A stretch of 64,000 nucleotides of DNA from Vicinamibacterales bacterium (GCA_965220695.1 OZ244838.1:1308951-1372950), one strand, 5' to 3'. Counted from the first letter of the stretch, positions 7,784-39,700 are shown. Translations and numbers: made by a program. The notes: a model not told the origin generated them from the sequence alone.

Positions 7784-7851
7784 GAGGCGTCTCGCAGCAG
7801 GGTGGCGGTGCGCCGCGCCCGCTGGCGCCGGCGCCCGAGGAGGATTCGCTG

Positions 7852-11371: not shown

Positions 11372-11556
11372 CAGTCCATGGCAAGAGTCCCGCTGCATTC
11401 GACCGGCGCTGCGGTCGCAAATTTCCCAATTTGCTCGCTGTCCCGTCTGACGGCGTTGCTCCTCCGTCACACATGTCCCAATGTGCTCCCTCGTCGCGCC
11501 TTGTCAGCCGGGCGCAGCGCCGCTCTCGGTGCGACGCGGGGTTCTACCACGGGCTG
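11372..11556 (+). mobile_element. MITE-like repeat, copy B
   Basis: 'CAGTCCATGGCAAGAGTCCCGCTGCATTCGACC...CCCAATGTGCTCCCTCGTCGCGCCTTGTCAGCCGGGCG...TCTCGGTGCGACGCGGGGTTCTACCACGGGCTG'. It lies between the divergent TonB-dependent receptor (TBDR) and thiolase-operon genes. Confidence 0.75.
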
Positions 11557-11564
11557 TTAACCCG

Positions 11565-14239: not shown

Positions 14240-14323
14240 GCGGGTGGCGCTGCGGCGCTTCCGCGGTCGGCGTCACGGCGGTGGGATCTGCCTGCCGGGC
14301 CGGGCTCGGAGACTACGGAGACG

Positions 14324-17665: not shown

Positions 17666-17667
17666 AG

Positions 17668-17898
17668 ATGACAACGCTCAACATCAAGAATCTGCCTGAT
17701 CATCTGCATGCACAGCTCCGGGAACGGGCCCGGCGAGAACGCCGGTCGGTCTCCCAGGAGGCGATATCGCTCCTGGAGGCGGCGCTCAACCCTCCGGTGC
17801 ACCTCTCCATTCTCGAACTGCGCGGGCTCGGGAAGGAGATGTGGACCGACCGTGACCCGGCAACCCACGTGCAGCGCGAACGAGCCGCCTGGGATTGA
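17668..17898 (+). CDS. Ribbon-helix-helix antitoxin (FitA/VapB-like)
   Basis: ATG 17668 follows GAGGAG. 'MTTLNIKNLPDHLHAQLRERARRERRSVSQEAISLLE' is the typical FitA-like RHH N-terminus. Confidence 0.65.
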   Translation: MTTLNIKNLPDHLHAQLRERARRERRSVSQEAISLLEAALNPPVHLSILELRGLGKEMWTDRDPATHVQRERAAWD

Positions 17899-18021
17899 TG
17901 GCGGATCCGGGCGCGGCTCGGTAGCCCTCGACCCCGCCGTCTGCATCTATTTCATCGAGGAAGGGCTGAGGACCCGGTTCACGAGATCCGGACGTGCTCA
18001 CATGGTGCCCTGCAGCCGCAC
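17898..18021 (+). pseudogene. vapC/PIN toxin remnant (frameshifted, truncated)
   Basis: ATG 17898 overlaps the antitoxin stop (TGATG) but meets TAG after 8 codons. In the next frame, 'VALDPAVCIYFIEEG' matches a VapC N-terminal strand. The reading then runs into the convergent transporter gene. Confidence 0.45.
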
Positions 18022-20905: not shown

Positions 20906-21865
20906 GTGCGTCGCGGAACGGCGAGGCCGAGCGTGTTTGATCGACGTCACGACGCACGAGTCAGAAACGCCGCCTTCCAGTGGCTCTCCGCGCTGGTCGC
21001 CAGTCATGGGGACGTCCTGCCGCGAACGCTCCTCGCCGAGGGGTTCACGCTGGACCGGATCCGCGTGCCGCTTGTCGGACCTCAGGGCATATTCAAGCCG
21101 CGCGTGCTGTCACGCGCGCCGCTGTCAATCACTACCGCGCCCGGAGTCAAATATGACGATGGCTTCGACGCGGATGGCCTCCTGCGTTACCGGTATCGGG
21201 GCGAGAATCCGAATCATCCCGACAACCGGGGCCTGCGATTCGCGCTCGCTGAGCGTCTGCCGCTGGTCTATGTCTACCGGCTGGTTCCCGGGAAATACGT
21301 GGCCGCATGGCCGGTGTTCATCGTCGGCGACGACCCCGGAGGTCTCGCCTTCACTGTGGTCGTCGACGATGCGGCGCACATCCGGCGACCGGCGGCCGGG
21401 ACCGCGGTGCATGACGACGCAGATATCGGGCGCCGGCGGTACATCACCGGCGCTTTCCGGCAGCGTCTCCACCAGCGGGCGTTCCGGGAGCGCGTACTGG
21501 ATGCGTACCAGCATCAATGCGCGTTCTGCCGGTTCAGACACCAGGAGCTGCTCGACGCGGCGCACATCGTGCCCGACACCGAGCCTCAAGGTACGCCGGT
21601 GGTAGAGAACGGCCTGTCGCTCTGCAAGCTGCACCATGCCGCGTTCGATCGCTACTTTCTCGGAGTCCGGCCGGACTACGTGGTCCAGGTCCGTGCCGAC
21701 GTCCTGGAAGAGAAAGATGGACCCACGCTCGTGCACGGCATCCAGGCGCTGCACGGCGTGAAGATCGCCGTGCCGCGGCGACCGGCTCTCCGACCCCGCC
21801 CGGAGCGGCTGGCATTCCGCTATCAACGTTTCCTGGAACAGGATCTTCGATCGGACCACATCTGA
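20906..21865 (+). CDS. HNH endonuclease with SRA/YDG-like N-terminal domain (candidate modification-dependent Type IV restriction enzyme)
   Basis: The C-terminal 'CAFCRFRHQELLDAAHIVPD..NGLSLCKLHHAAFDRYFLGV' is an HNH_2-type motif. The N-terminal 'GIFKP..PLSITTAPGVKYDDGFDADGLLRYRYRGENPNHPDNRGLRFA..PLVYVY' follows the SRA-like pattern of COG3440 proteins. Confidence 0.6.
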   Translation: MRRGTARPSVFDRRHDARVRNAAFQWLSALVASHGDVLPRTLLAEGFTLDRIRVPLVGPQGIFKPRVLSRAPLSITTAPGVKYDDGFDADGLLRYRYRGENPNHPDNRGLRFALAERLPLVYVYRLVPGKYVAAWPVFIVGDDPGGLAFTVVVDDAAHIRRPAAGTAVHDDADIGRRRYITGAFRQRLHQRAFRERVLDAYQHQCAFCRFRHQELLDAAHIVPDTEPQGTPVVENGLSLCKLHHAAFDRYFLGVRPDYVVQVRADVLEEKDGPTLVHGIQALHGVKIAVPRRPALRPRPERLAFRYQRFLEQDLRSDHI

Positions 21866-22132
21866 CACCGGTCCACCGAAGGACATCCTCCCACCGAACG
21901 ACACGGTTCTGGACCGCACGAGATGGGCACGTTGACTCCGGTCGGCAGCCTGGCAGAATTCAGAGCGATTGAACAATCACGGGGCGTGCACCCAATCGTC
22001 GCCGTGCCCGCTCACCCCGCTGCGCCGGTCCTGACGTACAGCGCGAAGGAGAAGTTCGGCGCCGGTTCCGGCATATCGCGTCCGTCCTGCAGATAGCGGT
22101 GCGCCTGGGCCTCCGGCGGGAGGGTTTCCAGC

Positions 22133-22172
22133 TCCGGTTCGCCGGTGCTGCGCCGGCTCGACGCAGCGTCAT
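22133..22172. repeat. 40-bp direct repeat, left copy (partner at 32316..32355)
   Basis: TCCGGTTCGCCGGTGCTGCGCCGGCTCGACGCAGCGTCAT matches the partner at 37/40 positions in the same orientation. Confidence 0.8.
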
Positions 22173-22204
22173 TGGCCCAGCGTCATGCAGACGCCGCGGA
22201 CTGC

Positions 22205-22459
22205 CTAGTCCGCTCGGTCCAGCCACGCCCGCATCAGGTTCTTGATTTGCGTCTGGTACCGGATGTTCAATCGCGCCGCCTTCGCCTTGAACGCTGTCAG
22301 GAGGTCGTCCGGGACTCTGAGGCTGATGGGACGGGCGGGGCCGGGCCGCCCGCCGCCGTGCAGCAGCCGGAAATCCTCCAGGAAGCGCGCGATTTCCTCG
22401 TGGGTCATCTCGCGGCAGCGGGCGAGGTGCGCGTCCGGGAACCGCTGTACAGGTCTCAT
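22205..22459 (-). CDS. BrnA-like ribbon-helix-helix antitoxin
   Basis: ATG 22459 overlaps the stop of the NTase gene (ATGA). 'ISLRVPDDLLTAFKAKAARLNIRYQTQIKNLMRAWL' matches the BrnA/CopG-type C-terminal RHH. Confidence 0.65.
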   Translation of the reverse strand: MRPVQRFPDAHLARCREMTHEEIARFLEDFRLLHGGGRPGPARPISLRVPDDLLTAFKAKAARLNIRYQTQIKNLMRAWLDRAD

Positions 22460-22920
22460 CGGAGCTTCTCCAGCGCCGCGGCGTCCTCCGTGTCCTGCGG
22501 GCGTCCACTGCGCCGCTTCATCTCGATCAGGTCGTCGATGGAAAGCACCGGAACGACGCATTCAGCCAATACCATGCGCGTGGTCCGCTTGTTCGTGAGA
22601 TCGTAGGTGATGACGATGTCCACCTGCTCTGACGCATCGTCCGGGTTGTAGAAGTTCCAGGCGACGAGGTTGCGCCGGTCGATGTACTCGTCACGAAAGG
22701 CGAACACATCGTCAGCCGAGATCGGCAGCCTGGAGACGAGGCCCAGTCCCGTCAGGGCGCGTTCCGCCGACACGAGCGCGGCGCGGCTCCAGTCGAGCGC
22801 GATATCGATGTCCATCGTCCCGCGCACGGCGCCGTGCAACGCGACCGCATAGCCGCCGACGACGGCGTACCGCACGTCCGCGTCGTTCAGCGCGGTGCAT
22901 ACCCGCACCAGTACCGTCAT
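22456..22920 (-). CDS. Minimal nucleotidyltransferase-fold protein
   Basis: 154 aa. 'VRYAVVGGYAVALHGAVRGTMDIDIAL' carries the GG..(n)..DxD NTase signature. It is translationally coupled to the BrnA-like gene. Confidence 0.6.
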   Translation of the reverse strand: MTVLVRVCTALNDADVRYAVVGGYAVALHGAVRGTMDIDIALDWSRAALVSAERALTGLGLVSRLPISADDVFAFRDEYIDRRNLVAWNFYNPDDASEQVDIVITYDLTNKRTTRMVLAECVVPVLSIDDLIEMKRRSGRPQDTEDAAALEKLR

Positions 22921-22926
22921 CGATGC

Positions 22927-22944
22927 AGTATATACGGTATATAC
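22927..22944 (-). promoter_or_regulatory. AT-rich promoter/operator: two tandem 8-bp palindromes GTATATAC
   Basis: 'GTATATACgGTATATAC' sits at 22928-22944, directly upstream of the NTase ATG (22920). On the coding strand a TATACT hexamer ends 6 nt before the ATG. Confidence 0.35.
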
Positions 22945-23061
22945 AATAGCAGGATCGCCGACGGTAATCGACGCGACGAGGAAGAGGGCAACCCAGCAGT
23001 CGGCGCACGGTCGCTTGATGGGCGTGCGGCACTCGGCCAGCGAATCAGAGTGGAGAAAGGG

Positions 23062-23130
23062 GATACCCGGGCGCAGTCATTACTCGGGCTCAGGTACGAA
23101 CGCGGGGAGGGTGTGTCGCAGGATCTCGTC
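23062..23130 (+). pseudogene. Sel1-repeat gene fragment
   Basis: Translates to 'DTRAQSLLGLRYERGEGVSQDLV', a single Sel1 consensus unit with no start or continuation. Confidence 0.4.
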
Positions 23131-23165
23131 CTGGATGGATTGTCGGTGTTCAGGGCGCAATCACA

Positions 23166-23312
23166 CTGGATCACCAGGAGCTGATCGAGACTATCAACGA
23201 CTACGTGACCCACCACAACGCGGACCCGAAGCCGGTCGTGTGGAGCACCACCGCCGACACCATCCTCGACAAGGTCAGGAAGTGTAGAGTCATTCTTTGG
23301 ATACACCGATAG
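23166..23312 (+). pseudogene. IS630-family transposase C-terminal fragment
   Basis: Translates to 'HQELIETINDYVTHHNADPKPVVWSTTADTILDKVRKC', the characteristic IS630 transposase tail. There is no upstream DDE domain. Confidence 0.6.
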
Positions 23313-23322
23313 GAGGGAATCG

Positions 23323-23643
23323 ATGGAGTTTCAAGGGTGGGTGCTGTTGGCGGTTTTCGTTATCAGTCTGGTGGCGCTGCTTGGGTTTTTCTGCACAAAG
23401 ACCCCAGGATTCAAACGTTTCTCGACAAGCACCCTGCTCTTGTTGCTCGTCGTTGGATTGAGCGCCGTCTTTTTTGCCGCAAGCATGCTGTCGGCGCAAA
23501 TCCTGGCGAACATCTTCTTCGCCGTGATCGGATTTGCGGGCGGGCTCTTTGCAGGAAGGGACCCAAGTGCTCATCCCCCAGGATCCAAGAACAAGAAGTC
23601 GGACCCACAGCCTCAACAAATCGCACCGCAGAGTCAAGACTAG
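23323..23643 (+). CDS. Small three-helix membrane protein (lower-GC ORF)
   Basis: AGGAGGG lies 5 nt upstream of ATG 23323. It has three hydrophobic helices and a polar Pro/Gln/Lys tail. GC is visibly lower than the surroundings. Confidence 0.45.
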   Translation: MEFQGWVLLAVFVISLVALLGFFCTKTPGFKRFSTSTLLLLLVVGLSAVFFAASMLSAQILANIFFAVIGFAGGLFAGRDPSAHPPGSKNKKSDPQPQQIAPQSQD

Positions 23644-23659
23644 ACCGCGCCCTGTTGCG

Positions 23660-23811
23660 GGAGGTCGTCCGGGACTCTGCCGTTGATGGCACGCGCTGGC
23701 CCGGGCCGCGCGCCGCCGTGCAGGAGCCGGAGATTCTCCGTGACGCGAGCGATTTCCTTGAGGGAAATTTTGCGGCAGCGGATGAGGTGCGGGTCCGAAA
23801 ACCGCTGCAGT
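23660..23811 (-). pseudogene. Second, truncated copy of the BrnA-like gene (5' half only, no start codon)
   Basis: Aligns to 22299..22450. It translates to 'LQRFSDPHLIRCRKISLKEIARVTENLRLLHGGARPGPARAINGRVPDDL', then diverges and stops. The RHH part is absent. Confidence 0.6.
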
Positions 23812-24026
23812 CGACCGAATGGTGAAGAGGGCTACCCAGCAGCGGGCGCACGGCCGCTCGATGGGCGTGCGTCACGCGGCCAGCGAATCAGAGTGATGGT
23901 AGTATCGGATAAACTCGTTTCCGGCGGTTTCTTCGGTTCGCCGGGATGTTCTCCACCGAGGGTTGGCACGCCGTGTGCCGCCGTCCGTGACGCCAGCGAG
24001 ATCCTGCTGAGAAAACGGCGACTGGG

Positions 24027-25646
24027 ATGATGCCCATACCACGAATGCATTCCGCGAACCGGTCAATCCTGCTCGGTGTTGTCGTTCTGGCGCTGACCGC
24101 GCTCTTCAGCGCGCCACCTGCCGGGGCGCAGACGGCGGACGAGGAATTGCGGGATCTCCGTGTCAAAGCGGAGCAGGGCGATGCTGCTGCGCAGTTCATC
24201 CTCGGGTTGACGTACCAAGTGGGGCTGGGCGTTCCGCAGGACGATGTTGAGGCGGTGCGCTGGTTTCGTCTGGCCGCCGAGCAGGGTCATGCTGCTGCGC
24301 AGTTCAAACTCGGACTTATGTACGGGGAGGGGCTGGGCGTTTCGCAGGACGACGTTGCGGCGGTGCGCTGGTTCAGGCTGGCGGCCGAGCAGGGTCATGC
24401 CCGAGCGCAATTCAATCTCGGGGTCCGTAAAAGTTTCGGTATGGGCATTCCGCAGAACGACGTCGAAGCGGTGCGCTGGTATCGTCTGGCGGCCGAGCAG
24501 GGTCATGCCAGTGCGCAGTTCAACCTCGGGGTCATGTACGCCAACGGGGAGGGTGTCCCGCAGGACGACGGTGCGGCGGTGCGCTGGTATCGTCTGGCGG
24601 CCGAGCAGGGTGATGCCGCAGCGCAGCTCAATCTTGGGGCGCAGTACGGCAGGGGTCAGGGGGTACCGCAGGATTACACCGAGGCCCTGCGCTGGTACCG
24701 GCTGGCGGCCATGCAAGGCAGTGTAACCGCCCAGAGTAATCTTGGATTGTATTACGCAAACGGCACGGGCGTTCTACAGGATGACGTAGTGGCGCACATG
24801 TGGCTCAACTTGGCCGCCTCCCGGTCAACCGGTGAGGATCGCGAAGAGCGTATGAACTGGCGCGATGAAGTGGCCGAACGGATGACGCGTGCGGATCTCA
24901 GCGAGGCGCAGCGATTAGCGCGGGAATGGCAACCCGATCAATCCGCGGCTCCTGCGGCGCGGGCAGCGAACCCGGCTGGTCGCCTGCCCGGCGACGGGCG
25001 CCCTTCGGACCGTGGCCCGGCCGACAGAGTGTCGACCGGATCCGGTTTTTTTGTCAGCGAGCTGGGTCATGTTCTTACAAATGCGCACGTGGTGCGCGAC
25101 TGCACCGAGGTGCGCATCCCTCCCGGTGACCCCGTCCTAGTCGCCGCGCGCGACGATTCCAGCGATTTGGCGCTGCTCCAAGGGCGATCGGACCGAAGTG
25201 GCGCGGTTGCGGCGTTCCGCGAGGGAAGAGGTATTCGGCCCGGCGCGGATGTGGTCGTGATCGGCTACCCGTTGCGCGGCGTCGTCTCTTCCGAACCGTC
25301 CGTGACGTTGGGCAACGTCAGCGCGCTGGCCGGTCCCGGTGACGACCGGCGCCTGTTCCAGATGACTGCGCCCGTACAACCGGGAAACAGCGGAGGGCCC
25401 GTACTGGACGGGGCCGGCCGCGTCGTCGGCGTGACTGTGTCCAAGCTCGACGCCCTGGAGATCCTCCGAGTCACCGGCGACATTCCGCAGAACGTCAACT
25501 TCGCTGTCAGTGCCGGAACCGCGCGTGCCTTTCTCGACGCCGAAGGCGTGCCCTACGAGACGGCGCCGTCCGACAACCTGCTGGCGGCGGACGTCGTCGC
25601 CGCATCGGCACGGAGCTTCACCGTGCTCGTTGAGTGCCGGAAGTGA
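24027..25646 (+). CDS. Secreted Sel1-repeat / trypsin-like (S1) serine protease fusion
   Basis: It has a signal peptide, six Sel1 units ('AEQG.A.AQF.LG..Y..G.GV.QD...AVRW(F/Y)RLA') and a C-terminal 'GSGFFVS..GHVLTNAHVV....QPGNSGGPVLD' chymotrypsin-fold protease. Confidence 0.8.
   Translation: MMPIPRMHSANRSILLGVVVLALTALFSAPPAGAQTADEELRDLRVKAEQGDAAAQFILGLTYQVGLGVPQDDVEAVRWFRLAAEQGHAAAQFKLGLMYGEGLGVSQDDVAAVRWFRLAAEQGHARAQFNLGVRKSFGMGIPQNDVEAVRWYRLAAEQGHASAQFNLGVMYANGEGVPQDDGAAVRWYRLAAEQGDAAAQLNLGAQYGRGQGVPQDYTEALRWYRLAAMQGSVTAQSNLGLYYANGTGVLQDDVVAHMWLNLAASRSTGEDREERMNWRDEVAERMTRADLSEAQRLAREWQPDQSAAPAARAANPAGRLPGDGRPSDRGPADRVSTGSGFFVSELGHVLTNAHVVRDCTEVRIPPGDPVLVAARDDSSDLALLQGRSDRSGAVAAFREGRGIRPGADVVVIGYPLRGVVSSEPSVTLGNVSALAGPGDDRRLFQMTAPVQPGNSGGPVLDGAGRVVGVTVSKLDALEILRVTGDIPQNVNFAVSAGTARAFLDAEGVPYETAPSDNLLAADVVAASARSFTVLVECRK
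24168..24815 (+). repeat. Six tandem 108-bp coding repeats (Sel1 units)
   Basis: A 36-codon periodicity is visible at DNA level, e.g. GCGGTGCGCTGGT(T/A)TCGTCTGGCGGCCGAGCAGGGT recurring. Confidence 0.8.
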
Positions 25647-26007
25647 TCCCCGAGCCGCCCCTGGCTGCAATATCCGAGAACTCGTATCACGAGAGGAACC
25701 ATGGCGGACCGGTCGCGCCGCGTGCGGGCGCGGCGTGACCGTGATGGAAACCGCCGTACGCAGGACGCGCCGCGATCAGCCGCGGAGCGGATGTCGATTT
25801 GTGCAGCCGCACGCATTTTTTCCTTGACAGCGATCTGACGGCCGACGTGCTCGCGGTCGGGGATGCCGGCTACAGGGGCGCTCAGACCGGCAGAGCGGCG
25901 CGCTGCGGCCCGCGGCCGGACCGGGCGATCGAAACCGACCCTTGCCCCGGGAACGACCCGCAGAGACGCGCTCAACCCGTTGTAAAACAGGGGCTTACAA
26001 TGGATCC

Positions 26008-27780
26008 ATGAGCATCGCATCAGACCTGTACGACACGGACATCCCTGCCCCCAATCCGCGATCCGTGGCGGTGGGCTCACCCGCCTTGCACGGCGCGGCG
26101 TCACCGCCCACGCCGCCGGACGCGGCGACCCGGCCGACAGCGCGCGGCGCGCTGACCCTTGCGTCACCGGCGCACGCCACCGCCATCGACATCTCGACGC
26201 CCGCGGTCCCGCCGCCGGTCATCACCGACCCGATGTCCCACGAAGCGCACCATGCGGCGGTCTCCCGGCACCGCGCGGAGGCGGTGCGTCTCGGCGACGA
26301 CATCGCCGAGTTGTCGGCCCGCATCCAGGCCGCGACCTACGAGCTGCTCGTGCTGATTCGCGCCTTCGACGAGCGGGAGGGGTGGGAGGGGTGCCAGTCG
26401 TGCGCGCACTGGCTGAACTGGCGCACCGGGCTCAAGCTGGGCGCCGCCCGTGAGAAGGTGCGGGTGGCGCGCGCGTTGGGCGCCCTGCCGCTGTTGAGCG
26501 ACGCGATGCAGCGCGGGCAGATCTCCTACTCGAAGGTGCGCGCCCTGACGCGCGTGGCGACCCCGGCCAACGAACGCCGTCTGCTCGACTTCGCGCTGTG
26601 CGCGCCGGCGTCCTATGTCGAACGGTTGGCGCGGGCGTGGCGCCGGGTCGACCGGGCCATCGAGGCGGCCGATGACCAACGGCGGCAGACGCGGCGGCAC
26701 CTCAACACCTGGGTCGACGACGACGGGATGGTCGTCATCCGCGGCCGGTTGTCCCCCGAGGTGGGCGCGGTGGTGCGGCGGGCGCTCGAGGCGGCGAGCG
26801 ACCGCTTGCGCACGGAGGTGGCCGCGGCCGACGCCGCCGAGACCAGCACGGTCCAACGCCAGGCGGATGCGTTGGGACTGGTGGCCGAGAGCGCCTTGGC
26901 GGCCGACCTCGACCGGGGGACGGCGGGCGACCGCTATCAGGTCGTGCTGCACGTCGAGGCGGAGACGCTCCAGGCCGACGCGGCGGCGCCCGCATCGCAC
27001 GTTTCCGCGGAAACGTCGCGCGACGCGAAAGCGAGGGAAGCGAGGGTTTCCGAGGAGACGCCTCCCGGCGCGGCGGCGCCCGCAACGCACGTTTCCGCGG
27101 AAACGTCATCCCACGCGGTCGGGTCCACCGGACGTGGGTGTCCGGACGCAGGCGGTCGCCCCGTCGCGGCGACCTCTTCCGCTCGGATGGCCGGCCACGC
27201 CGCCCTGGAAGATGGCGACGGGCTGCGCGTCTCCGCGGAAACGTCCCGCCGCGTGGCCTGCGATTCCGCGGTGGTCGTCCTGCAGCATACAGCGGACGGC
27301 GCGATCCTCGATGTCGGGCGCAAGACGCGCACCATCCCGCCGGCGCTGCGGCGGGCGCTGCAGGCGCGCGACCGCCAGTGCCGGTTCCCGGGCTGCCACG
27401 CCCGGCGCTGCGATGCGCATCACGTTCACCACTGGGCCGACGGCGGCGCGACGCGGCTCGACAACCTCGTGCTGCTCTGCCGGCGGCACCACCGTGCGGT
27501 CCACGAAGAGGGCTTCACGGTTCGGCTGGACCCGGCTGGAGATGCCGAGTTCTGCTGGCCCGACGGCCGGCCGTTTCCTGCGGTGCCGCCTCCACCCCGC
27601 TGGAGCGGCCCACCGCTGGCGCCGACCGACGCCCGCCTGGCCGCGTCCGCCATCGTGATCGACGCCGACACGGCCACGCCGGACTGGCACGGTGAACGCC
27701 TCGATGTCGGATTTGCGATTGACGTCATGTGGATACCGCGCACGGCCCCCGGCGCCGAGGCCAGTGGCGCACCGACGTAG
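26008..27780 (+). CDS. DUF222 / HNH endonuclease (REP13E12-type)
   Basis: ATG 26008. The N-terminus is DUF222-like ('LSARIQAATYELLVLIRAFDEREGW..'). The C-terminus is 'GRKTRTIPPALRRALQARDRQCRFPGCHARRCDAHHVHHWADGGATRLDNLVLLCRRHHRAVHE'. Confidence 0.8.
   Translation: MSIASDLYDTDIPAPNPRSVAVGSPALHGAASPPTPPDAATRPTARGALTLASPAHATAIDISTPAVPPPVITDPMSHEAHHAAVSRHRAEAVRLGDDIAELSARIQAATYELLVLIRAFDEREGWEGCQSCAHWLNWRTGLKLGAAREKVRVARALGALPLLSDAMQRGQISYSKVRALTRVATPANERRLLDFALCAPASYVERLARAWRRVDRAIEAADDQRRQTRRHLNTWVDDDGMVVIRGRLSPEVGAVVRRALEAASDRLRTEVAAADAAETSTVQRQADALGLVAESALAADLDRGTAGDRYQVVLHVEAETLQADAAAPASHVSAETSRDAKAREARVSEETPPGAAAPATHVSAETSSHAVGSTGRGCPDAGGRPVAATSSARMAGHAALEDGDGLRVSAETSRRVACDSAVVVLQHTADGAILDVGRKTRTIPPALRRALQARDRQCRFPGCHARRCDAHHVHHWADGGATRLDNLVLLCRRHHRAVHEEGFTVRLDPAGDAEFCWPDGRPFPAVPPPPRWSGPPLAPTDARLAASAIVIDADTATPDWHGERLDVGFAIDVMWIPRTAPGAEASGAPT
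26981..27108. repeat. Two 38-bp direct repeats 90 bp apart, each with the perfect 18-bp palindrome ACGTTTCCGCGGAAACGT
   Basis: The palindromes lie at 26999-27016 and 27089-27106. Degenerate versions are at 27227-27244 and 27987-28004, and perfect copies recur at 30752-30769 and 30842-30859. Confidence 0.85.
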
Positions 27781-27904
27781 ACCAGGGTCTGCGATGCCTG
27801 CGATCCGGCTCAAGCGCACGAACAAGCTGATAGCGCAAGAGCCTGCCGTCGCTTCAGGGGGAAGTGGACCGGTGCCGGCACCCATGCAGTCATGCGGGCG
27901 TTCT

Positions 27905-28082
27905 GATGCAGGCGGTCGCTCTGTCGCGGCGACCTCTTCCCCTCGGATGGCCGGCCACGCCGCCCTGTAAGATGCAGACGGGCTGCGCGTCTCCGCGGAA
28001 ACGTCTCGCGGCGCGAGAGCGAGGGCAGCTAGGGTTTCCGAGGAGACGCCTCCGGGCGCGGCGGCGCCCGCGAGCTGGGCCG
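27905..28082 (+). repeat. Rearranged mini-copy of the DUF222-HNH internal segment
   Basis: 27905-28000 aligns to ~27145-27240. The next part aligns to ~27010-27082, the reverse of the order in the gene. The junction lies exactly at CCGCGGAAACGTC. Confidence 0.7.
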
Positions 28083-28331
28083 TGCGCAGGCGTGACGCGC
28101 GCTGCCGGACAGCCGCTTCCGTCCGACCGAGGCGCGCGGAAAGCTCGCGCAGACGCTGGCCACCGTCTTCGTAGTCGAGCGCCGCAGCGAGCCGCACGGC
28201 CGTGTCCTCACTCTCCGTCCGATGGCGCGCCATCATCAACGCCCTACGTCAGCGGTGTGTTGGTGCTGTTCTTCGGGTGAACGCGACGTGCGAAGTCACT
28301 CGCACTGCGTGTCGCGTTCTTGACCACTCTG

Positions 28332-29294
28332 TCAGCGGTCCGGGTCTTGTGTGCGCCCGGGTCGCCTGTCGGTGATGGCGGGTGGAGCCGTTCCGCTTTC
28401 CCATACCTTCTGGTGGCCTACGCCGGTTCGGCAGGCGTCGTGGAGTGCTTCGCGGATGCGGCTCGCACCGAAGGCGCTGGCGCCGACGTAGTGGCCGACG
28501 CCGCTCTCGTCGAACGTTCGGTCGATTTCGCCGGGGGCTATTGCGGTTCGGTGGATTGCACCGCTGTTGGTGCGGCATTCGATGATGGCCTGTTCTCCTT
28601 CGGTCCAGATGGCGACGTGGCGGTATACGGCTCCCCGCAGCGCGGCGCTCGCTTGTGTGCCAAGGGTGGCGGGGTCGTCGATCTCGCCGGCGCCGACGAG
28701 CTGCATGCGGGCATCGCGCTCGAGGGTCGCGTCGGCGTGTTCCAGCGTGAGCGCCGTGACTTCCGTGTCGTACCGGCTACGGCAGTTGACCGCGGTGGCC
28801 AGGGCCTTGGGGTCGTGCTCGTTGGCCTTGATCAGGTCGAAGACGTCTCGCACCAGTGCGTCGTCGGCTCTCTCGAGCTTGCCGTGGAGTATCTGGGAGC
28901 TGTCGAGGACCATTGCCGGGTGTCCGTTGACGAGTGCCTCTCGCTCGGCGCCTGACGGGATCGGGCTCAGTTGGACGAGGTCTACTTCGCCAGCGTCGAA
29001 CTCGATGATCCACTGACTTTCGTGGTACGTCGCTGTGTCCCCCAGGTCCCCCATCGTCTGACGGAACGGGTTCCCGGGTTCTGCGAGGTCTCGCAGGGGC
29101 ACGTCGCGGCCCACGGCGAGGTCGAGGTCGAAGCTGTCGCGGTGTTTCCAGCGGGCGGCCAGCGTGGCGCCGCCGCCGAGCTGGAAGCGGTACGGTCCGC
29201 CGTGCAAGTTCGCCAGCGCGTCGGCTATCGCCTTGTGCACGCGATTCCACAGGTGTCCGCCCGTCGTGGAGAGGGTCAGCTCTTCACGGCCCAT
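28332..29294 (-). CDS. AbiEii / DUF1814-type nucleotidyltransferase toxin
   Basis: The track ORF is over-extended. ATG 29294 gives 320 aa containing 'FQLGGGATLAARWKHRDSFDLDLAV', the GG..(n)..S.DxD signature of AbiEii-family NTases. Confidence 0.7.
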   Translation of the reverse strand: MGREELTLSTTGGHLWNRVHKAIADALANLHGGPYRFQLGGGATLAARWKHRDSFDLDLAVGRDVPLRDLAEPGNPFRQTMGDLGDTATYHESQWIIEFDAGEVDLVQLSPIPSGAEREALVNGHPAMVLDSSQILHGKLERADDALVRDVFDLIKANEHDPKALATAVNCRSRYDTEVTALTLEHADATLERDARMQLVGAGEIDDPATLGTQASAALRGAVYRHVAIWTEGEQAIIECRTNSGAIHRTAIAPGEIDRTFDESGVGHYVGASAFGASRIREALHDACRTGVGHQKVWESGTAPPAITDRRPGRTQDPDR

Positions 29295-29725
29295 CGGTTG
29301 ATCTTGTGGATTCGGGGGGCGCAGGCGAAGTTGGCGCGGTGCAGTGCAGCGACGAGCTGGCGCAAGGTGTACGCGTGTTGGACCCACGCTTCGATGAGCT
29401 CGGCTGCTGTTGCCTCGGCGCCCCACATTCGGATGATGCTGGCTTGCCGGTCGGTCGGTTGCTCGGCACGCACGGCGTCGTAGAACTCGTCGGCTGTTGG
29501 GCGCCGCTTCCAGCCGGCGCAGCCGCTGGCGAGTCGGCGCTGGACAGCACGGGCGTGGCGACCGCGCGGCGTGCCGGGCGCGCACAGTCGGCGGAAGTCG
29601 TCTTCGGCCGCCGGGCGGTCGCTGAAGGCGCCTGGCGGCAGCAGCATAGCCGGTCGCCTGGGGTTCCGTTCGGCTTTGCGCCGCCCGCTCTCGGTGCGGG
29701 TGTCGAAGGTGGCAAGCGTCAACAT
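29276..29725 (-). CDS. Hypothetical protein upstream of AbiEii (possible cognate antitoxin)
   Basis: 149-aa ORF whose end overlaps the AbiEii start by 19 nt. I see no AbiEi-like wHTH, and the N-terminal half is Arg-rich and may not be coding. Confidence 0.3.
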   Translation of the reverse strand: MLTLATFDTRTESGRRKAERNPRRPAMLLPPGAFSDRPAAEDDFRRLCAPGTPRGRHARAVQRRLASGCAGWKRRPTADEFYDAVRAEQPTDRQASIIRMWGAEATAAELIEAWVQHAYTLRQLVAALHRANFACAPRIHKINRWAVKS

Positions 29726-29884
29726 GACGATTCACGTTACCGTACTCAGCAGGTCGCGTCCTGATCGTGCTCGATGCGTGATGGGCGTGTCGTTGACGGG
29801 GCTGGGTGCGCCGAAACCACCGGCCGCGGACGGGCGCGGTGTCGATTTGGCGAGATCGCGGTTGCGTTTTCATCGGGCTGGTTC

Positions 29885-30133
29885 TCAAGCAGCGTTCGGT
29901 TTCACTTGGCGAGAAACTGCAGGATCCTCGAACGTCAGAGCCGCCGTCGCGAGCACGGTCCCGACCATCCAGCGGATGAGCCTGGTTTTCCCGTTTGGCG
30001 ATCTCGGTGTGGACCTCGGCGAGTCCGGCCCTGAACTGGGCGGCCGTGACGTTGGTCGCCCCCGCTCGGCGAGCTTCCGCATGGCGTTGGCGATGACGTC
30101 GGCCTGGTCGCGGTCAATGCCCCCGGCGGTCAA
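29885..30133 (-). CDS. DUF1640-like small protein, possibly frame-disrupted
   Basis: The C-terminal 'TRLIRWMVGTVLATAALTF' resembles the DUF1640 membrane tail. The middle of the ORF is Pro/Ser/Arg junk, while an alternative frame reads 'ATNVTAAQFRAGLAEVHTEIAKRE'. Confidence 0.25.
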   Translation of the reverse strand: MTAGGIDRDQADVIANAMRKLAERGRPTSRPPSSGPDSPRSTPRSPNGKTRLIRWMVGTVLATAALTFEDPAVSRQVKPNAA

Positions 30134-30173
30134 CTCCTAGGCGACCGAGAGCGTGTCGAGCAGGGCCTGAACC

Positions 30174-30542
30174 CTACGGCCGGCCGGAGTCGCGGACGAC
30201 GATGCGCTGCCGGTTACGGGAGACGACCTCGGTGATCGTAGCCGTCCAAGAGCCGCCCCGGCTGTCGGTGATGCTGATCGGGGTGCCGCGCGGATCCTCC
30301 GCGAGCGCGGCGACACCGGGTCCGTCGAGCACGGCGCCCCAGCCGTCGCCGAGCTTGCAGGGTTTCCAGCCGGCGAGGGGTTCTCTGTTCGGCGTCTCGA
30401 GGTCGGCCGGGAACTCGCGGTCGAGTGCTGCCGCGATGACGTCACGAGCCCAGGCGCTGACGTGCCGTTCATCGCGAAGTCGCGCGAGGCGGTCGCGCAG
30501 TTCGGGTTCGATGCGGATCTGGAACACGTCTGTACGAAACAT
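30174..30542 (-). CDS. CopG/RHH-like N-terminal domain protein
   Basis: ATG 30542. 'FQIRIEPELRDRLARLRDERHVSAWARDVIAAALDRE' follows the RHH pattern. The C-terminal ~75 aa are unrecognised. Confidence 0.4.
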   Translation of the reverse strand: MFRTDVFQIRIEPELRDRLARLRDERHVSAWARDVIAAALDREFPADLETPNREPLAGWKPCKLGDGWGAVLDGPGVAALAEDPRGTPISITDSRGGSWTATITEVVSRNRQRIVVRDSGRP

Positions 30543-30674
30543 GACACGACACAGCAGCACGCCACGTCGAGCCTTCCAGCGGGGTCGCTCAGGTCCGGCG
30601 ATCCTCGGGGAACGCCTCCAGTGCGCCAGTGCCGGCCACGCCCCGCCAGCTGCCCGGCGTGGTGACCGCGTGAC

Positions 30675-31125
30675 GGCGGCCGACCGCTATCAGGTCGTGC
30701 TGCACGTCGAGCCGGACACGCTCCAGACCGACGCGGCGGCGCCCGCATCGCACGTTTCCGCGGAAACGTCGCGCGACGCGAAAGCGAGGGCAGCGAGGGT
30801 TTCCGAGGAGACGCCTCCCGGCGCGGCGGTACGCGCATCGCACGTTTCCGCGGAAACGTCATCCAACGCGGCCAAATCCGCCAAACGTGGGTGTCCGGAC
30901 GCAGGCGGTCGCCCTGTCGCCGCAACCTCCGCCGCTCGGATAGCCGGCCATGCCGCACTGGAAGACGGCGACGGACTTCGCATGTCCGCGGACACCTCTC
31001 GCCGGCAGGCGTGCGATGCTGCGGCGGTCGTCATGCAACATGCGCCGGACGGCGCGATTCTCGACATCGGGCGCAAGACCCGAACCATCCTCCGGCGATC
31101 CGGCGGGCGCTCCTTGCGCGGGACC
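30675..31125 (+). pseudogene. Central fragment of a second DUF222-HNH gene
   Basis: About 450 bp align colinearly with 26925-27385 of the intact gene, including both palindrome repeats. It lacks the DUF222 N-terminus and the reading breaks just before the CRFPGC/HNH motif. Confidence 0.7.
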
Positions 31126-31284
31126 AGTGTGAACATGACGACGCGGAGGTGATGTCGCAATCGCGACATACAACCTGGACGGTGCCAGAGATTATGGCGA
31201 ACCCGCCCGCTGCCCACGTCGCCTGCGGGCATTCCGGTTGTCTTCCGAGACAGCGTAAGACACCCTGCCAGAGAAACGGTCTGG

Positions 31285-31442
31285 CAGCCCGTGGTGCAAG
31301 CCCCGCTGCATTCGAACGGCGCTGCATCCCGGCTGCCGGCGTTGCTCCTCGGTCACACATGGCCCAATGTGCTCCCTCGTCGCGCCTTGTCAGCCGGGCG
31401 CACCGCCATTCTCGGTGCAACGCGGGGTTTCACCACGGGCTG
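31285..31442 (+). mobile_element. MITE-like repeat, copy C (shortest, 158 bp)
   Basis: 'CAGCCCGTGGTGCAAGCCCCGCTGCATTCGAACGGCGCTGC...CCCAATGTGCTCCCTCGTCGCGCCTTGTCAGCCGGGCG...TCTCGGTGCAACGCGGGGTTTCACCACGGGCTG'. It overlaps the 3' end of the HEPN gene. Confidence 0.8.
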
Positions 31443-32130
31443 CTAGGTGGTCCATCATGTTGTCAAGAAATATCGGCACGAGAACGTCGAGAATCGCGGC
31501 GCCGGTCTGGGCTTGTCTGCGATTCATGAAGCCACCCGCGGTGGCGAATCCATGCATGAGCTGGTTGCGCAGCACGTACAGACGGCTGAAAACCTTGTCC
31601 AGCAGCTCTTTCAAAGGCTTACGGAGCTCCTTCACGGAGACGTTGTAATAGGCGTCGCTACCGTACTTGAGAAGCTTATCTACGTCCTTGATATCACGAT
31701 CGTATTGCTCCCACATCGTTTCGCGGTCGCGCTTGTCCCAGAATCTCCGGAACACGTACTCATTGGAGATGAGATCAGAGATCCAGGACTGAAGGTCGCT
31801 GCTGACGACTGTATAGATGCGGCGGCAGTCGAGTGCGATCAGAAGCCTGAGGAAGTCACAGTAACGGTCCGGTTCCGAGCGTCGATCGTGATCGGATTCC
31901 ATACGTGGATCGCGATCGATCGCGTAGGCGGCGTTGAACGCTATCCACAAGAAGATACACCTCGCATGGTTGCGATACTGGTCCTGCGTCGTGTCTTCGT
32001 CACATGCCCGCTTGAACCAGCTCAGGGATCGGTGGAGACGCTGCCTGAGGGGGTGATCCTTGTTCAACGTCGACTTCAACGTCTCGAACTTGTTCGTCAA
32101 AACCTCGTAGGTCGGCGGTTCGTTCGACAT
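31390..32130 (-). CDS. HEPN-like protein (RNxxxH motif), low-GC, stand-alone
   Basis: 246 aa, all-helical in appearance. 'RLYVLRNQLMHGFA' carries an R-x4-H motif in RN...H form. AGGTGA lies upstream of ATG 32130. The last ~18 codons and the stop are encoded by MITE copy C. Confidence 0.55.
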   Translation of the reverse strand: MSNEPPTYEVLTNKFETLKSTLNKDHPLRQRLHRSLSWFKRACDEDTTQDQYRNHARCIFLWIAFNAAYAIDRDPRMESDHDRRSEPDRYCDFLRLLIALDCRRIYTVVSSDLQSWISDLISNEYVFRRFWDKRDRETMWEQYDRDIKDVDKLLKYGSDAYYNVSVKELRKPLKELLDKVFSRLYVLRNQLMHGFATAGGFMNRRQAQTGAAILDVLVPIFLDNMMDHLAARGETPRCTENGGAPG

Positions 32131-32133
32131 GGC

Positions 32134-32355
32134 TCACCTGTAACGTTCACGCAACAACCGGTTACGACAACACACGAGAGTTTCCGCGTCGTGCACACGC
32201 TGGTGCCAGAACGGCGACACCATCCGCACGGCGTAGTCGTCGGCCAGAATCGGCGCGTGGTGCCAGCGCCAGTGATGCGCACGGATGGCGGCCGCGAGCG
32301 TCGCCGTCCGGCTCGTCCGGTTCGCCGGCGATGCGCCGGCTCGACGGAGCGTCAT
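32134..32355 (-). pseudogene. N-terminal fragment resembling LCM-type class I SAM methyltransferase
   Basis: 'SRTATLAAAIRAHHWRWHHAPILADDYAVRMV' follows the 'SRTA..A..RA.H.....P.(I/L)..D..A' N-terminal pattern of that family. It stops after 73 codons, 3 nt before the HEPN start. Confidence 0.35.
32316..32355. repeat. 40-bp direct repeat, right copy (partner at 22133..22172)
   Basis: TCCGGTTCGCCGGCGATGCGCCGGCTCGACGGAGCGTCAT. Confidence 0.8.
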
Positions 32356-32662
32356 GAACACAGCATACAGGCGCCGCCGGCGAGGTGTGTTCGCTTGACG
32401 CTGGTCCGCCGCTCATCGTCTGCATCGGACCTGCACCAGCCCTCCGGGCGACGTATCCGGACTTCATCGCCGACACGAAGAAGTTGCCCGTCAGACGTCT
32501 GCGCCATCGTCTGAATGCTGACGGTCGTGGGCAGCTTCGCCGTGGGCTCGGGCGTGGGACTCGGCCTCGGCGGTCGCGTTGGCGGTAGAATGGTCGGCGA
32601 GGAGACTGACCCCATGACATCCATGACACCGCACGCGTGCAACCTTGGCCGACTGGCCGTAG

Positions 32663-32820
32663 CAGCCCGCGGTGAAACCCCGCGTTGCACCGAGATTGGC
32701 GCTGCGCCAGCGTGGCAAGGCGCGACGAGGGAGCACATTGGTGCATGTGTGACCGAGGAGCAACGCCGCCACGCGGGATGCAGCGCCAATCGAATGCAGC
32801 GGGGCTTTCACCGCGGGCTG
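32663..32820 (-). mobile_element. MITE-like repeat, copy D (inverted relative to the others)
   Basis: Its reverse complement aligns end to end with copy C. The outer end supplies the ATG at 32794 used by the TonB-dependent receptor ORF. Confidence 0.8.
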
Positions 32821-35400
32821 CTAGCCGCTGTGCTGTTGTCGTTGTCGGCGACAGCCGCGGTGACGGCGGCCGTCCAGACGACCGGGGCCATCGAAGGCGC
32901 GGTCGTCGACGCGAACGGCAACCCGTTGCCCGGCGTGGTGGTGACGGTGGCCGGCCCCGGCGGGCGCGAGGAACGTGTCACGGGCGCCGATGGAACCTAC
33001 GCCGCTGCCGGTCTGGCGGCCGGCGACTATGTCGTCACCGCGATGCTGCCGGGCTTCGAGACCGTGGAGACGTCGGTCTCCGTCGGGACAGGCGCCACCG
33101 CAACGGTCCCGATCGTCCTGCAGATCGCGCGGTTGCTCGAAACGATCAGCGTCGTGTCGGAGGAGCCCCGGACCTTCGCGAGCAACATCGTCTCCCAACC
33201 GATGCGGCTGCAACAGTCGAACATCACGAGCGTGACGTCGGTGGTGGACAACCTTCCGGGCGTCTCCATCCAGGAGGGGGACGCGTACGGCTTCGACGAC
33301 TGGTCGAGCAATGTCGCCGTCCGCGGCTTTCAGGTGACCATCAGCGAGGCGCAGATCGGCACCACCATCGACGGGCTGCCGAACGGCACGTCCGACTACT
33401 TCAGCGGCGCCAAGGCGAACCGGTTCATCGATCCGATGAACCTCGGGGGGGTCGAGGTGTCGCAGGGAACGGCCGACATCGCCTCGCGGTCGGTCGAGGC
33501 GCTGGGCGGCACCTTCAACTACCTGACGGACGATCCGGCGGCGGAGCGGACCTACACGGCGTCGACCACCATCGGCGAGAACGACGGCAAACGGTTCTCC
33601 ATGCGGGTCGACACCGGGCCGTTGTTCGGCACCGAGACCCGCGCCTGGATCTCGGCGGTCCGTCAGGAGGCGACCGACTGGGTGCAGGGGTCGGCGCGCA
33701 ACGAGCGCGAGCATGTCGCCGCCAAGCTGGTCTCGTCACGCGGACGCCTCGATCTCACCAGCTACGTCTCGTACGACAGCATCCACGAAGACACCTACCA
33801 GCGGCTCTACAGCGACGCCAACTTCAGGGCCAACCCGCGCTGGGACCGCCTGGTCGGCGACTGGCCCGGCGTGCCGTATCTGAACCAGTTCTACCGGCCT
33901 GGCTGGCAGACGCGGCGGAACAATACATTCGCCTACCTGAAGGCGGACTGGTCGTTCAGCGACGTCACCTCGCTGAACCTGGGCGCCTATTTCCATCGCA
34001 ACCGGGGCCGCGGCGACTGGCTGCCTCCCTACATCGCCGACGTCACCGACGACGGCGGCGGACCGGAATCGGAGCTCATGGGAAGGGCAGCGGTACAGGG
34101 CGGCGCGCAACTCGGGCTGATCCGCTTCGTGAACCGGGACGGCGCCGCTGTCGGACCGACGCCCGGGTGCACGTCGTCCTACATCTTCAACTATTACGGC
34201 TCGGGCGGCCCGGCGGTGGACCCGGCGTGCCACCCGGGCGCCACCGCGGTGCAGTCGTACCGCCACAGCCACTACGGGAAGGACCGCATCGGCGTGACGC
34301 TCGACGAAGAGTGGTTCACGACCGTCGGCGCGGCTGGCAGCACACTGCGCGCCGGCATCTGGTACGAGGACTCGCGGCGCGATCTTGGCCGCGACTGGCA
34401 CCAGATGCTGGATCCGACGCTGAGCTTCAAGTGGAACGAGCAGGCCTACTGGCACCAGTACGAGTGGGATTTCCCGCAGCACGTCTTCAAGTGGTACATG
34501 GAGGAGACGATCTACGCTGGCCCGTTCGCTCTGAGTGGCGGCCTCAAGCAGTTCCTGGTCGGCGTGTCGCGCGACGACCTGTTCGACGTCGACCCGGAAC
34601 TGGCGGTCGATTCCGATTCGAAGCTGCTCATCTCCGGCGGCGTCACGTATGAGACCCCGGTCGAGGGTCTGGACCTGTTCGCCGGCTACGCCGAGAATTT
34701 CAAGGCCATCAGCAGCACGCTGCTCGAGGTGCCGGGACGCAGCCTCGATGCGCTCAAGCCCGAAACCGCCTCGAACATCGATGTCGGGCTGCAGTATTCG
34801 GGAGAGCGGGTTGCGCTGGGCGCCACCTGGTACACCATCGATTTCCAGAACCGGATCTTCTACCTCGGTCCGCAGACGCCGGCCGGTCCCAACTATCTCA
34901 TCCCGGGCGGCGGCGCCTACTTCAACGCCGGCGGCATCGACACGAGCGGCGTCGAGTTCTCTGCGACCGTGCAGTTGCCACGCCAGACATCGTTCTACAC
35001 CGCCTACACGTTCAACGACTCGACGTATCTCGGGAGCGGCGATCCGCTTGTCGACGCGAACCAGGGTATCGTGGCGGGTACCGATGTCACCGGCGTGCCG
35101 GACCGGCTGTGGGTCGTCTCGCTCGACCGGACCGGCCCCCTCGGCACGGGGCTGACCGCCAAGTACACGTCGCCGCGGCGCGTCAGCCTGACGTCGGACT
35201 GGTACGCGGACGCCTACTGGCTGGTGGACGCCTATCTCAGCTTCTCGGGCGCGGCGTTGAGTGATCTGCTGCGGTCGACGGAGTTCTCGATCGTGGCGAA
35301 CAACCTGTTCGACAAGGCCTATCTCTCGGCCATCACCGAGAACGCGGCCTGGCTCGGGGCACCGCGGACGATTTCGATGACCGCCACCGTCTCGTTCTGA
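32794..35400 (+). CDS. TonB-dependent receptor with carboxypeptidase-regulatory-like N-terminal domain
   Basis: The signal peptide is 'MQRGFHRGLLAAVLLSLSATAAVTAAVQ'. 'GAIEGAVVDANGNPLPGVVVTV' is CarboxypepD_reg-like. The barrel ends '..ISMTATVSF'. The track ORF start at 32515 is an upstream extension through the MITE. Confidence 0.85.
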   Translation: MQRGFHRGLLAAVLLSLSATAAVTAAVQTTGAIEGAVVDANGNPLPGVVVTVAGPGGREERVTGADGTYAAAGLAAGDYVVTAMLPGFETVETSVSVGTGATATVPIVLQIARLLETISVVSEEPRTFASNIVSQPMRLQQSNITSVTSVVDNLPGVSIQEGDAYGFDDWSSNVAVRGFQVTISEAQIGTTIDGLPNGTSDYFSGAKANRFIDPMNLGGVEVSQGTADIASRSVEALGGTFNYLTDDPAAERTYTASTTIGENDGKRFSMRVDTGPLFGTETRAWISAVRQEATDWVQGSARNEREHVAAKLVSSRGRLDLTSYVSYDSIHEDTYQRLYSDANFRANPRWDRLVGDWPGVPYLNQFYRPGWQTRRNNTFAYLKADWSFSDVTSLNLGAYFHRNRGRGDWLPPYIADVTDDGGGPESELMGRAAVQGGAQLGLIRFVNRDGAAVGPTPGCTSSYIFNYYGSGGPAVDPACHPGATAVQSYRHSHYGKDRIGVTLDEEWFTTVGAAGSTLRAGIWYEDSRRDLGRDWHQMLDPTLSFKWNEQAYWHQYEWDFPQHVFKWYMEETIYAGPFALSGGLKQFLVGVSRDDLFDVDPELAVDSDSKLLISGGVTYETPVEGLDLFAGYAENFKAISSTLLEVPGRSLDALKPETASNIDVGLQYSGERVALGATWYTIDFQNRIFYLGPQTPAGPNYLIPGGGAYFNAGGIDTSGVEFSATVQLPRQTSFYTAYTFNDSTYLGSGDPLVDANQGIVAGTDVTGVPDRLWVVSLDRTGPLGTGLTAKYTSPRRVSLTSDWYADAYWLVDAYLSFSGAALSDLLRSTEFSIVANNLFDKAYLSAITENAAWLGAPRTISMTATVSF

Positions 35401-39345: not shown

Positions 39346-39442
39346 GACCGCGGAACCAGGAGCCGAGGCCGCCATCCCGACAAGGCGCTCTCGGCCGCCT
39401 TCGTCCGTGCCGCCCCGCCAGGACGGCACGCTGACGGAACGG

Positions 39443-39700
39443 GTTGTACCTCTTCGTCAAGCCCGAGGGCACCCGAAGCTGGATTCAGCGCATCGTCATC
39501 CGCTACCACGGGGTCGCGGCCGTGACGCACGGCTTCCGGTCGTCGTTCCGGGATTGGGCGGCCGAGGAGACGGACCACCCGCCAAGGTCATCGAGGCGGC
39601 GCTGGCGCGCGTGATCAAGAACAAGGTTGAGGCGGTCTACGTCCGGTTGAACCTATTCGAGCGGCAGCGGGCACTGAGCCTTCCCCTTGACCGCCTGGGA
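39443..39700 (+). pseudogene. P4-type tyrosine integrase remnant (large internal deletion plus frameshift)
   Basis: 'LYLFVKPEGTRSWIQRIVIR' (N-terminal arm-binding region) runs straight into 'THGFRSSFRDWAAEET' (C-terminal catalytic box). After a frameshift it continues as 'VIEAALARVIKNKVEAVYVRLNLFERQRAL'. Confidence 0.6.

Follow-up and report, generated by a model that had tools for sequence, protein, structure and literature searches.

The subject of this work is a pair of direct repeats that brackets 10.2 kb of accessory DNA in a 64,000-nucleotide stretch from a Vicinamibacterales bacterium (the window; GCA_965220695.1 OZ244838.1:1308951-1372950; GC 67.7%). An initial annotation of the window had described a 40-bp sequence (the 40-mer) at 22133-22172 and again at 32316-32355, in direct orientation, 37/40 identical and spaced 10,183 bp apart, and had seen in it either a pair of attachment (att) sites with attL/attR-like geometry or a duplicated gene 5' end. 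The coordinates, the orientation and the 37/40 identity were all reproduced, and of the two proposals the duplicated gene 5' end stands, situated at the borders of accessory DNA that varies between strains, and the active attL/attR pair does not. The repeat is read here, with good confidence, as the duplicated 5' end of a methyltransferase gene of the LCM/TIGR00027 family, marking the fossil boundary of an island; that degree of confidence covers the identity of the repeat and its reading as a fossil boundary and excludes the origin of the duplication, which is weighed separately below.

The two copies stand alone in the 64-kb window, where no third copy of the 40-mer was found at up to 3 mismatches or even at up to 9, and 100 dinucleotide-preserving shuffles (3 mismatches allowed) gave 0 matches. 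Gapped alignment, which the initial annotation had asked for, extends the homology rightward only, to ~65 bp (22133-22197 versus 32316-32377, 53/65 identical), with none leftward of the 40-mers; on the minus strand the extended homology takes in the start codon and ~25 nt of upstream sequence. A match arising by chance can be virtually dismissed as the explanation of the 40-mer, and so can an N-terminus common to the members of a multi-copy family dispersed over the genome: TIGR00027 methyltransferases are often multi-copy in some phyla, which would favor a scattered family, but the empty shuffles and the presence of only two copies in the window speak against it, as do homology that includes untranslated upstream sequence, syntenic in all relatives, and the fact that the nearest other methyltransferase orthologs are at most 76% identical in protein. 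Searches of the entire window with Rfam (at gathering thresholds) and for tRNA genes returned no tRNA or RNA target, and scans for promoters and terminators around both repeat copies gave nothing useful.

The source gene and its two copies

For comparison, ~18 related loci from 10 samples (numbered with the prefix L) were assembled from look-ups of the methyltransferase and of the nucleotidyltransferase (NTase) and HEPN proteins described below. Look-up of the HEPN protein gave L001 (98% identical), and look-ups of HEPN homologs gave further relatives including L002, in which an intact methyltransferase of 305 amino acids (aa), beginning MTLRRADASPANR, is encoded between a DUF222-HNH gene and an HNH_2 gene. 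Its product matches both PF04072 (LCM; 3e-44, 151.5 bits against a cut-off of 22.3) and TIGR00027 (S-adenosylmethionine (SAM)-dependent methyltransferase; 1e-53, 182.3 bits against a cut-off of 93.55), and with both family cut-offs passed the source of the repeat is assigned, on sequence, to a gene of the LCM/TIGR00027 SAM-dependent methyltransferase family. The 40-mer corresponds to methyltransferase codons 1-13, to which the repeat adds ~27-30 nt 5' of the start codon. The L002 5' region is 92.5% identical to window 32382-32205 over 187 nt and 82.6% identical to window 22264-22133, while the 3' end of the L002 gene matches window 22136-21810; the identity of the repeat was checked by four-way alignment of the gene 5' ends plus translations.

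Copy 1 (22133..22205, minus strand), which covers methyltransferase positions -30 to +40 (the 40-mer plus the spacer up to the stop codon of the gene for a BrnA-like antitoxin, BrnA below) and is 79% identical to the L002 5' region by blastn, is the start that belongs to the gene itself, in place next to HNH_2. Whereas L002 and L020-L028 have the methyltransferase gene intact, the window has a pseudogene (22012..22172, minus strand), in which there remain 13 start codons and, beyond a ~757-bp internal deletion, the last 41 codons and the stop. The ~757 bp were lost between two CGGA tetranucleotides (microhomology), and the junction is frameshifted: codon 13 is followed, in another frame, by the last 41 codons, ELETLPPEAQAHRYLQDGRDMPEPAPNFSFALYVRTGAAG, and the stop at 22012-22014. 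Both copies do carry the minus-strand ORF (open reading frame) start MTLRRAGA(A/S)PANR that had been reported for them, but the ORF at copy 1 is this pseudogene remnant and not a gene.

Copy 2 at its full extent spans methyltransferase positions -27 to +151 (32205..32382, minus strand; 178 bp, 92.5% to the intact L002 gene) and is nearly identical to the methyltransferase gene from +50 to +150. It supplies the 50 N-terminal codons of a 73-codon ORF (32134..32355, minus strand) whose other 23 codons, HQRVHDAETLVCCRNRLLRERYR, are unrelated to the methyltransferase and whose stop lies 3 nt ahead of the ATG of the HEPN-like gene. What had been taken for a gene of its own is instead this methyltransferase fragment plus 23 codons, with no independent family. 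The small ORF is open in five variants (the window, L001, L002, L003 and L030), and its pN/pS ratio (nonsynonymous to synonymous polymorphism) of 0.3-1.4, from too few substitutions, gives no clear sign of purifying selection. HEPN probably owes its expression to the borrowed start region of the methyltransferase, though no promoter is predicted there.

Related loci and the origin of the duplication

Independent assemblies, L029 and L001, confirm the two halves of the window. Every locus with an intact upstream block edge (L001, L002/L025 and L020-L024) carries both repeat copies, and the duplication is older than the split of this strain from its relatives. The copies are separated by 2.7 kb in L020-L024, by 9.9 kb in L002 and by 10.2 kb in the window, the differences being deletions with unrelated endpoints and nested insertions; the block is thus not the single 10.2-kb unit that had been supposed. 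L001 is without window 22137-25729 and part of the methyltransferase, whereas L002 and L020-L027 are without 22265-25781 and keep the last 60-90 bp of BrnA before an intact methyltransferase. The L003 contig begins inside copy 2, has at its other end no more of the methyltransferase than an internal relic, and retains a 3' relic of the Sel1-protease gene; L021 and L022 have lost HEPN via internal deletions, its last ~137 nt remaining; L026 has lost copy 2 and HEPN and has an IS1-like transposase gene at that end; and L032 has lost copy 2 and most of HEPN, and differs in its left flank. The gene order of L114 is the same as that of L020. None of the deletions or insertions among the ~18 loci ends in the repeat, all endpoints lying elsewhere, and none of these loci displays a precise excision there. 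The block has been reshaped by illegitimate deletions, insertions of miniature inverted-repeat transposable elements (MITEs) and nested elements, and not by recombination at the repeat.

A relative with a single 40-mer and no block, for which the initial annotation had proposed a search, did not appear: L026 and L032, though lacking copy 2, still keep parts of the block. A genome-collection scan with the methyltransferase, searching for an empty site, gave one 69%-identical, non-syntenic Vicinamibacterales ortholog, and look-ups of 74-76% methyltransferase orthologs led to other contexts and to no empty site. Because the HNH_2 endonuclease gene (20906-21865) that flanks the methyltransferase is missing from L003, L032 and L114, it must also be counted as accessory, which places the right edge of the variable region further to the left than first assumed.

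A further prediction had been that circular permutation of the block through the repeat would create an NTase-BrnA-small ORF-HEPN array. Such an array exists in L030 (a 288-kb contig) and L031, as a same-strand run of NTase (98% identical), BrnA, a 55-aa ORF (derived from the same methyltransferase fragment) and a 258-aa HEPN; L030 7977-8729 corresponds to window 22944-22192, and L030 8752-9625 to window 32306-31443. The array is chromosomal, however, and its junction is not a clean crossover. In L030 a spacer of copy-1 type (13 nt) comes after the BrnA stop, then ~30 nt resembling a MITE (CGCGTTGCACCGAGAT...) and then the fragment from ~+55; the 40-mer is missing, with the scrap of MITE in its place. 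Two DUF222-HNH copies flank the L030 array, the right half of L030 has exactly the L001-type junction, and this structure could reflect an element in a tandem or dimer state or else a duplication via unequal recombination.

Tentatively favored as the origin of the duplication is integration of a circular element with an attachment region that mimicked its target at the 5' end of the methyltransferase gene. Such an element would have integrated at that 5' end, leaving the old 5' end before HEPN and placing NTase-BrnA in front of a rebuilt methyltransferase gene; the NTase-BrnA-fragment-HEPN array of L030/L031 would preserve the joined ends of the element, whose recombinase would since have been lost. 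Integration is preferred because the repeat has its upstream edge a few nt past the BrnA stop and at its downstream edge passes directly into the HEPN cassette, because the cargo is accessory and HEPN has a GC content of 55%, and because the permuted array exists in L030 and L031. SXT/R391 integrates at the 5' end of prfC (PMC2791158), and in islands and integrative and conjugative elements of this type, as here, the direct repeats consist of a gene 5' end plus a little upstream sequence, one copy belonging to the gene (here intact in relatives) and the other being a truncated stump, accessory low-GC cargo lies between the repeats, and the joined ends give a continuous gene array, seen here in L030/L031. 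The block has direct repeats at both ends, one of them within the target gene, as an att-bounded element would. Unlike SXT/R391-type elements, it has no integrase, excisionase or transfer genes and displays neither an empty site nor excision polymorphism; the repeat is 178 bp long and imperfect, the block is a decayed mosaic, and the target gene is dead in this strain.

Several observations weigh against an origin by integration. An imperfect repeat of 178 bp is long for an att site. No recombinase belonging to the block was found in any variant, and no recombinase domain in any ORF of the block, bearing out the absence of an integrase that the initial annotation had already remarked (the one integrase found, in L002, is that of a nested element described below), and no empty site or single-copy healed locus occurs among the related loci. 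Since the distant orthologs (69-76% aa identity) are not syntenic, the native sequence upstream of the methyltransferase gene is not identifiable, and since the L030/L031 junction is missing the 40-mer and contains the ~30-nt MITE scrap, a crossover within the repeat is not demonstrable. Finally, the same arrangement would result from a tandem duplication with later deletions.

This last explanation is nearly as good as integration and is a realistic possibility. It holds that an ancestral NTase-BrnA-methyltransferase segment was tandemly duplicated without site-specific recombination, for example by unequal recombination between DUF222-HNH copies, that HEPN-bearing DNA cut the upstream methyltransferase copy at codon 50, and that the upstream NTase-BrnA was later deleted in most lineages, L030 and L031 keeping the older state. 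The position of the L030 array between two DUF222-HNH copies, together with the L001-type junction in the right half of L030, speaks for such a duplication; fragments of DUF222-HNH, mutually 80-93% identical, are scattered through the block; the near identity of copy 2 to the gene beyond +50 fits as well; and no recombinase is needed, matching its absence. In Mycobacterium tuberculosis, DUF222-HNH genes occur in the REP13E12 loci, in which the phiRv1 attachment site lies and which are hot spots of recombination and gene conversion (PMC13061034, PMC1931498). The present region resembles those loci in having several DUF222-HNH genes and fragments, one of which is split in L002 by an integrase-bearing element with a 16-bp att site, and in that the DUF222-HNH copies coincide with rearrangement breakpoints; it differs in belonging to another phylum (Vicinamibacterales-like Acidobacteriota) and in that the 40-mer is not part of DUF222-HNH. 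Tandem duplication would, however, require several independent events, including a deletion of the upstream NTase-BrnA that ends a few nt from the BrnA stop codon, and a relative with two full NTase-BrnA copies was not seen.

That the 10.2-kb block is mobile at present, excising through the 40-mer as an active attL/attR pair, is extremely improbable. The direct-repeat geometry, the accessory cargo and the permuted array of L030 and L031 would suit an active pair, but the block contains no recombinase, the target gene is gutted here and hence leaves 65 bp of imperfect homology, the ~18 related loci display other endpoints throughout and no excision or empty site, and the L030 junction is without the 40-mer. 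It is also unlikely, if somewhat less so, that the block goes back to a small element without an integrase (NTase-BrnA ... HEPN plus DUF222-HNH), one that inserted into the methyltransferase 5' end by carrying a surrogate for it; were this so, the element may have been mobilized by the DUF222-HNH (REP13E12-like) endonuclease instead of an integrase, and the methyltransferase-derived 73-codon ORF may have been co-opted as a leader or partner of HEPN. If the DUF222-HNH protein or the small ORF does act in mobility or in control of HEPN, the finding becomes a weightier one.

As a fossil boundary of a patchwork accessory island the finding is of an ordinary kind and mainly a clarification: what resembles an att site proves to be the start of a gene in duplicate, and the block behind it a hot spot of variation between strains of uncultured Vicinamibacterales-like bacteria of the soil. 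The natural variants of the block offer a worked example of the decay of an accessory island and also illustrate that a permuted array predicted from one sequence could be checked in metagenome assemblies.

The NTase-BrnA and HEPN modules

The first module of the block encodes an NTase of the DUF6036 family (22456..22920, minus strand; 154 aa; PF10706, PF19502; 2275 homologs), whose stop is overlapped by 4 nt by the gene for a BrnA-like antitoxin (22205..22459, minus strand; 84 aa; PF14384, 7.6e-6), the latter scoring 26.7 bits, just over the Pfam cut-off of 26.1. As in BrnT/BrnA modules, the downstream gene encodes a BrnA-like ribbon-helix-helix (RHH) antitoxin and overlaps the upstream gene by 4 nt; unlike in those modules, the upstream partner is a nucleotidyltransferase and not a BrnT (RelE-fold) toxin. 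When 4 kb around each of 69 metagenome loci with NTase homologs were examined, BrnA was directly downstream in 13/13 homologs of at least 48% identity with room downstream, and neither this HEPN nor the methyltransferase was found within the 4 kb at any locus (0/69). Among the relatives, L032 has NTase-BrnA without HEPN, and L001 and L002 have HEPN without NTase. The NTase-BrnA and HEPN modules are thus independent, NTase-BrnA being an autonomous DUF6036/BrnA pair, and the closeness of NTase to HEPN in L030 is lineage-specific.

A second, NTase-less copy of the upstream region plus the 5' part of BrnA lies at 23660-23895 (compared with 22300-22447 and 22968-23052, 82-85% identical). It looks as if the NTase gene had been precisely removed from, or added to, one of the two upstream-region/BrnA copies.

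The HEPN-like gene at the other end of the block (31390..32130, minus strand; 246 aa) has a GC content of 55% as compared with 68% for the window and belongs to a family of 1636 homologs. Its RNQLMH motif is invariant, residues R188, N189, Q190 and H193 being unchanged in 41 homologs (an Rx4-6H motif), and the AlphaFold2 model of the protein is all-helical (predicted local distance difference test score, pLDDT, 88). An Rx4-6H motif in a predicted all-alpha domain agrees with membership of the 246-aa protein in the HEPN superfamily. The protein has no match in Pfam, NCBIfam or PADLOC, and its model no Foldseek match at E<1e-3 in the PDB or BFVD; the one sequence match is a weak one to the motif region of ApeA (9hxl, E=0.046). 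Elsewhere, HEPN homologs adjoin a UvrD-type helicase (called by Pfam) and, on the authors' own reading of the ORFs, another helicase, a large ATPase-like protein and regulators resembling helix-turn-helix (HTH) proteins.

These results do not sustain the earlier suggestion that the permuted array reunites a classical MNT/HEPN pair, as the NTase is of the DUF6036 family and paired with BrnA, and HEPN is absent within 4 kb at all 69 loci. It is quite improbable that NTase-BrnA-small ORF-HEPN is a functional toxin-antitoxin or defense operon of MNT/HEPN-like type, split in the window by intervening DNA. In favor of such an operon, L030 and L031 have the four genes side by side on the same strand, and the small ORF is uninterrupted in the window, L001, L002, L003 and L030. 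Opposed to this are the constant presence of BrnA after the close NTase homologs and the absence of HEPN and methyltransferase from their surroundings; the helicases, ATPase-like protein and regulators, not NTases, that neighbor HEPN homologs elsewhere; the derivation of the small ORF from the methyltransferase and its pN/pS; and the survival of each module alone (NTase-BrnA in L032, HEPN in L001 and L002). The likeness to type II MNT/HEPN pairs consists in the NTase and HEPN-motif genes sharing one island, with two genes between them in L030, whereas the NTase here is DUF6036/PF10706-like and accompanied by BrnA, the HEPN belongs to a 220-260-aa family with a weak ApeA-like motif match, and the two have no conserved co-occurrence. 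PADLOC models of defense systems were empty for HEPN, the small ORF, the NTases and BrnA.

Other contents of the block and mobile DNA

The DNA between the repeat copies is a mosaic of HEPN, DUF222-HNH copies and fragments, an NTase-like pair, a Sel1 protease and NTase-BrnA. Its content is accessory, as the initial annotation had described it, but two of the labels given there, an IS630 relic and an AbiEii module, are not verified. The segment 22945..25661, absent from L030, L031 and L032, comprises a duplicated upstream region (22968-23052, repeated at 23811-23895), a possible transposase tail, an ORF for a 106-aa membrane protein (23323-23643), a BrnA 5' relic (23660-23807) and a gene for a Sel1-repeat trypsin-like protease (24027-25646). 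The Sel1 repeats inside the protease gene form six tandem 108-nt units (24060-24826, 60-78% identical), and a stray Sel1-like unit lies at 23053-23123. The supposed IS630 relic at ~23130-23290 has no Pfam match and no tblastx match to the IS630-family copy in the window.

Next in order is the DUF222-HNH (REP13E12-like) gene (25942..27780, plus strand), which holds the unoccupied 16-bp att core described below (27469-27484) and is followed by an internal fragment of such a gene (27896..28071, plus strand; ~90% identical to 26997-27253). A second internal fragment (30646..31284, plus strand; 84-91% to 26911-27373) follows HEPN in all relatives. Between the fragments are an overlapping pair of genes for 149-aa and 320-aa proteins (28332..29725, minus strand), which in L002 is located inside the integrase element and whose 320-aa product matches AbiEii weakly (PF08843, E=0.13), and a 128-aa ORF with an RHH-like N-terminus and no family match (30174..30560, minus strand).

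A DUF222-HNH gene of L002 is interrupted in its HNH region by a 6,287-bp insertion (11667-17953) that carries a P4-type integrase and has a 16-bp direct repeat, GCCGGCAGAGCAGCAC, on either side; the same 16-mer occurs once, unoccupied, in the window at 27469-27484. The L002 integrase does not belong to the methyltransferase-bounded block, being that of a nested element with its own 16-bp att site. It is a tyrosine (P4-type) integrase, whereas the integrase of phiRv1 is a serine integrase; to our knowledge no function is known for REP13E12-type elements. A relic of an integrase, retaining residues 9-63 and 329-389 and 76-85% identical in nucleotide sequence to that of L002, lies at 39340-39676, directly 3' of the stop codon of the second pyrroloquinoline quinone (PQQ) gene. 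It was rejected as a candidate for the recombinase of the block, as no repeat copy, DUF222 att core or att-like repeat is found nearby.

The MITE family mentioned above is 160 bp long with perfect 16-nt terminal inverted repeats, GCAGCCCGCGGTGAAA, and has five copies in the window (7583-7791, 11372-11565, 31284-31443, 32662-32821 and 47451-47680), that at 32662-32821 with a TA target duplication. The element is classed as a MITE by its terminal inverted repeats, target duplication, lack of coding capacity, several copies and empty sites in L002. Two MITEs, inverted to each other, flank HEPN, and both are missing from the corresponding L002 sites. The one at 31284..31443 (plus strand) replaces the last ~30 HEPN codons (246 versus 258 aa). 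The other, at 32662..32821 (minus strand), is located within the signal-peptide coding region of a gene for a TonB-dependent receptor, whose native N-terminus MTPHACNLGRLAVAAVLL is swapped for the MITE-encoded MQRGFHRGLLAAVLL; an ATG internal to the MITE supplies the receptor start, and the gene therefore stays open.

The IS630-family insertion sequence of the window (49001-50164; HTH_32 plus DDE_3) was considered as a source of the MITEs and rejected, since its terminal repeats do not match. A 96% identical copy occurs in L001 (24-1190) at another site, by the equivalent of window 40941, and this high identity at a different site indicates recent transposition. The window also contains paralogous PQQ-dependent dehydrogenase sequences at 37674-38362 and 63312-64000, which are 25.6 kb apart and 74-89% identical.

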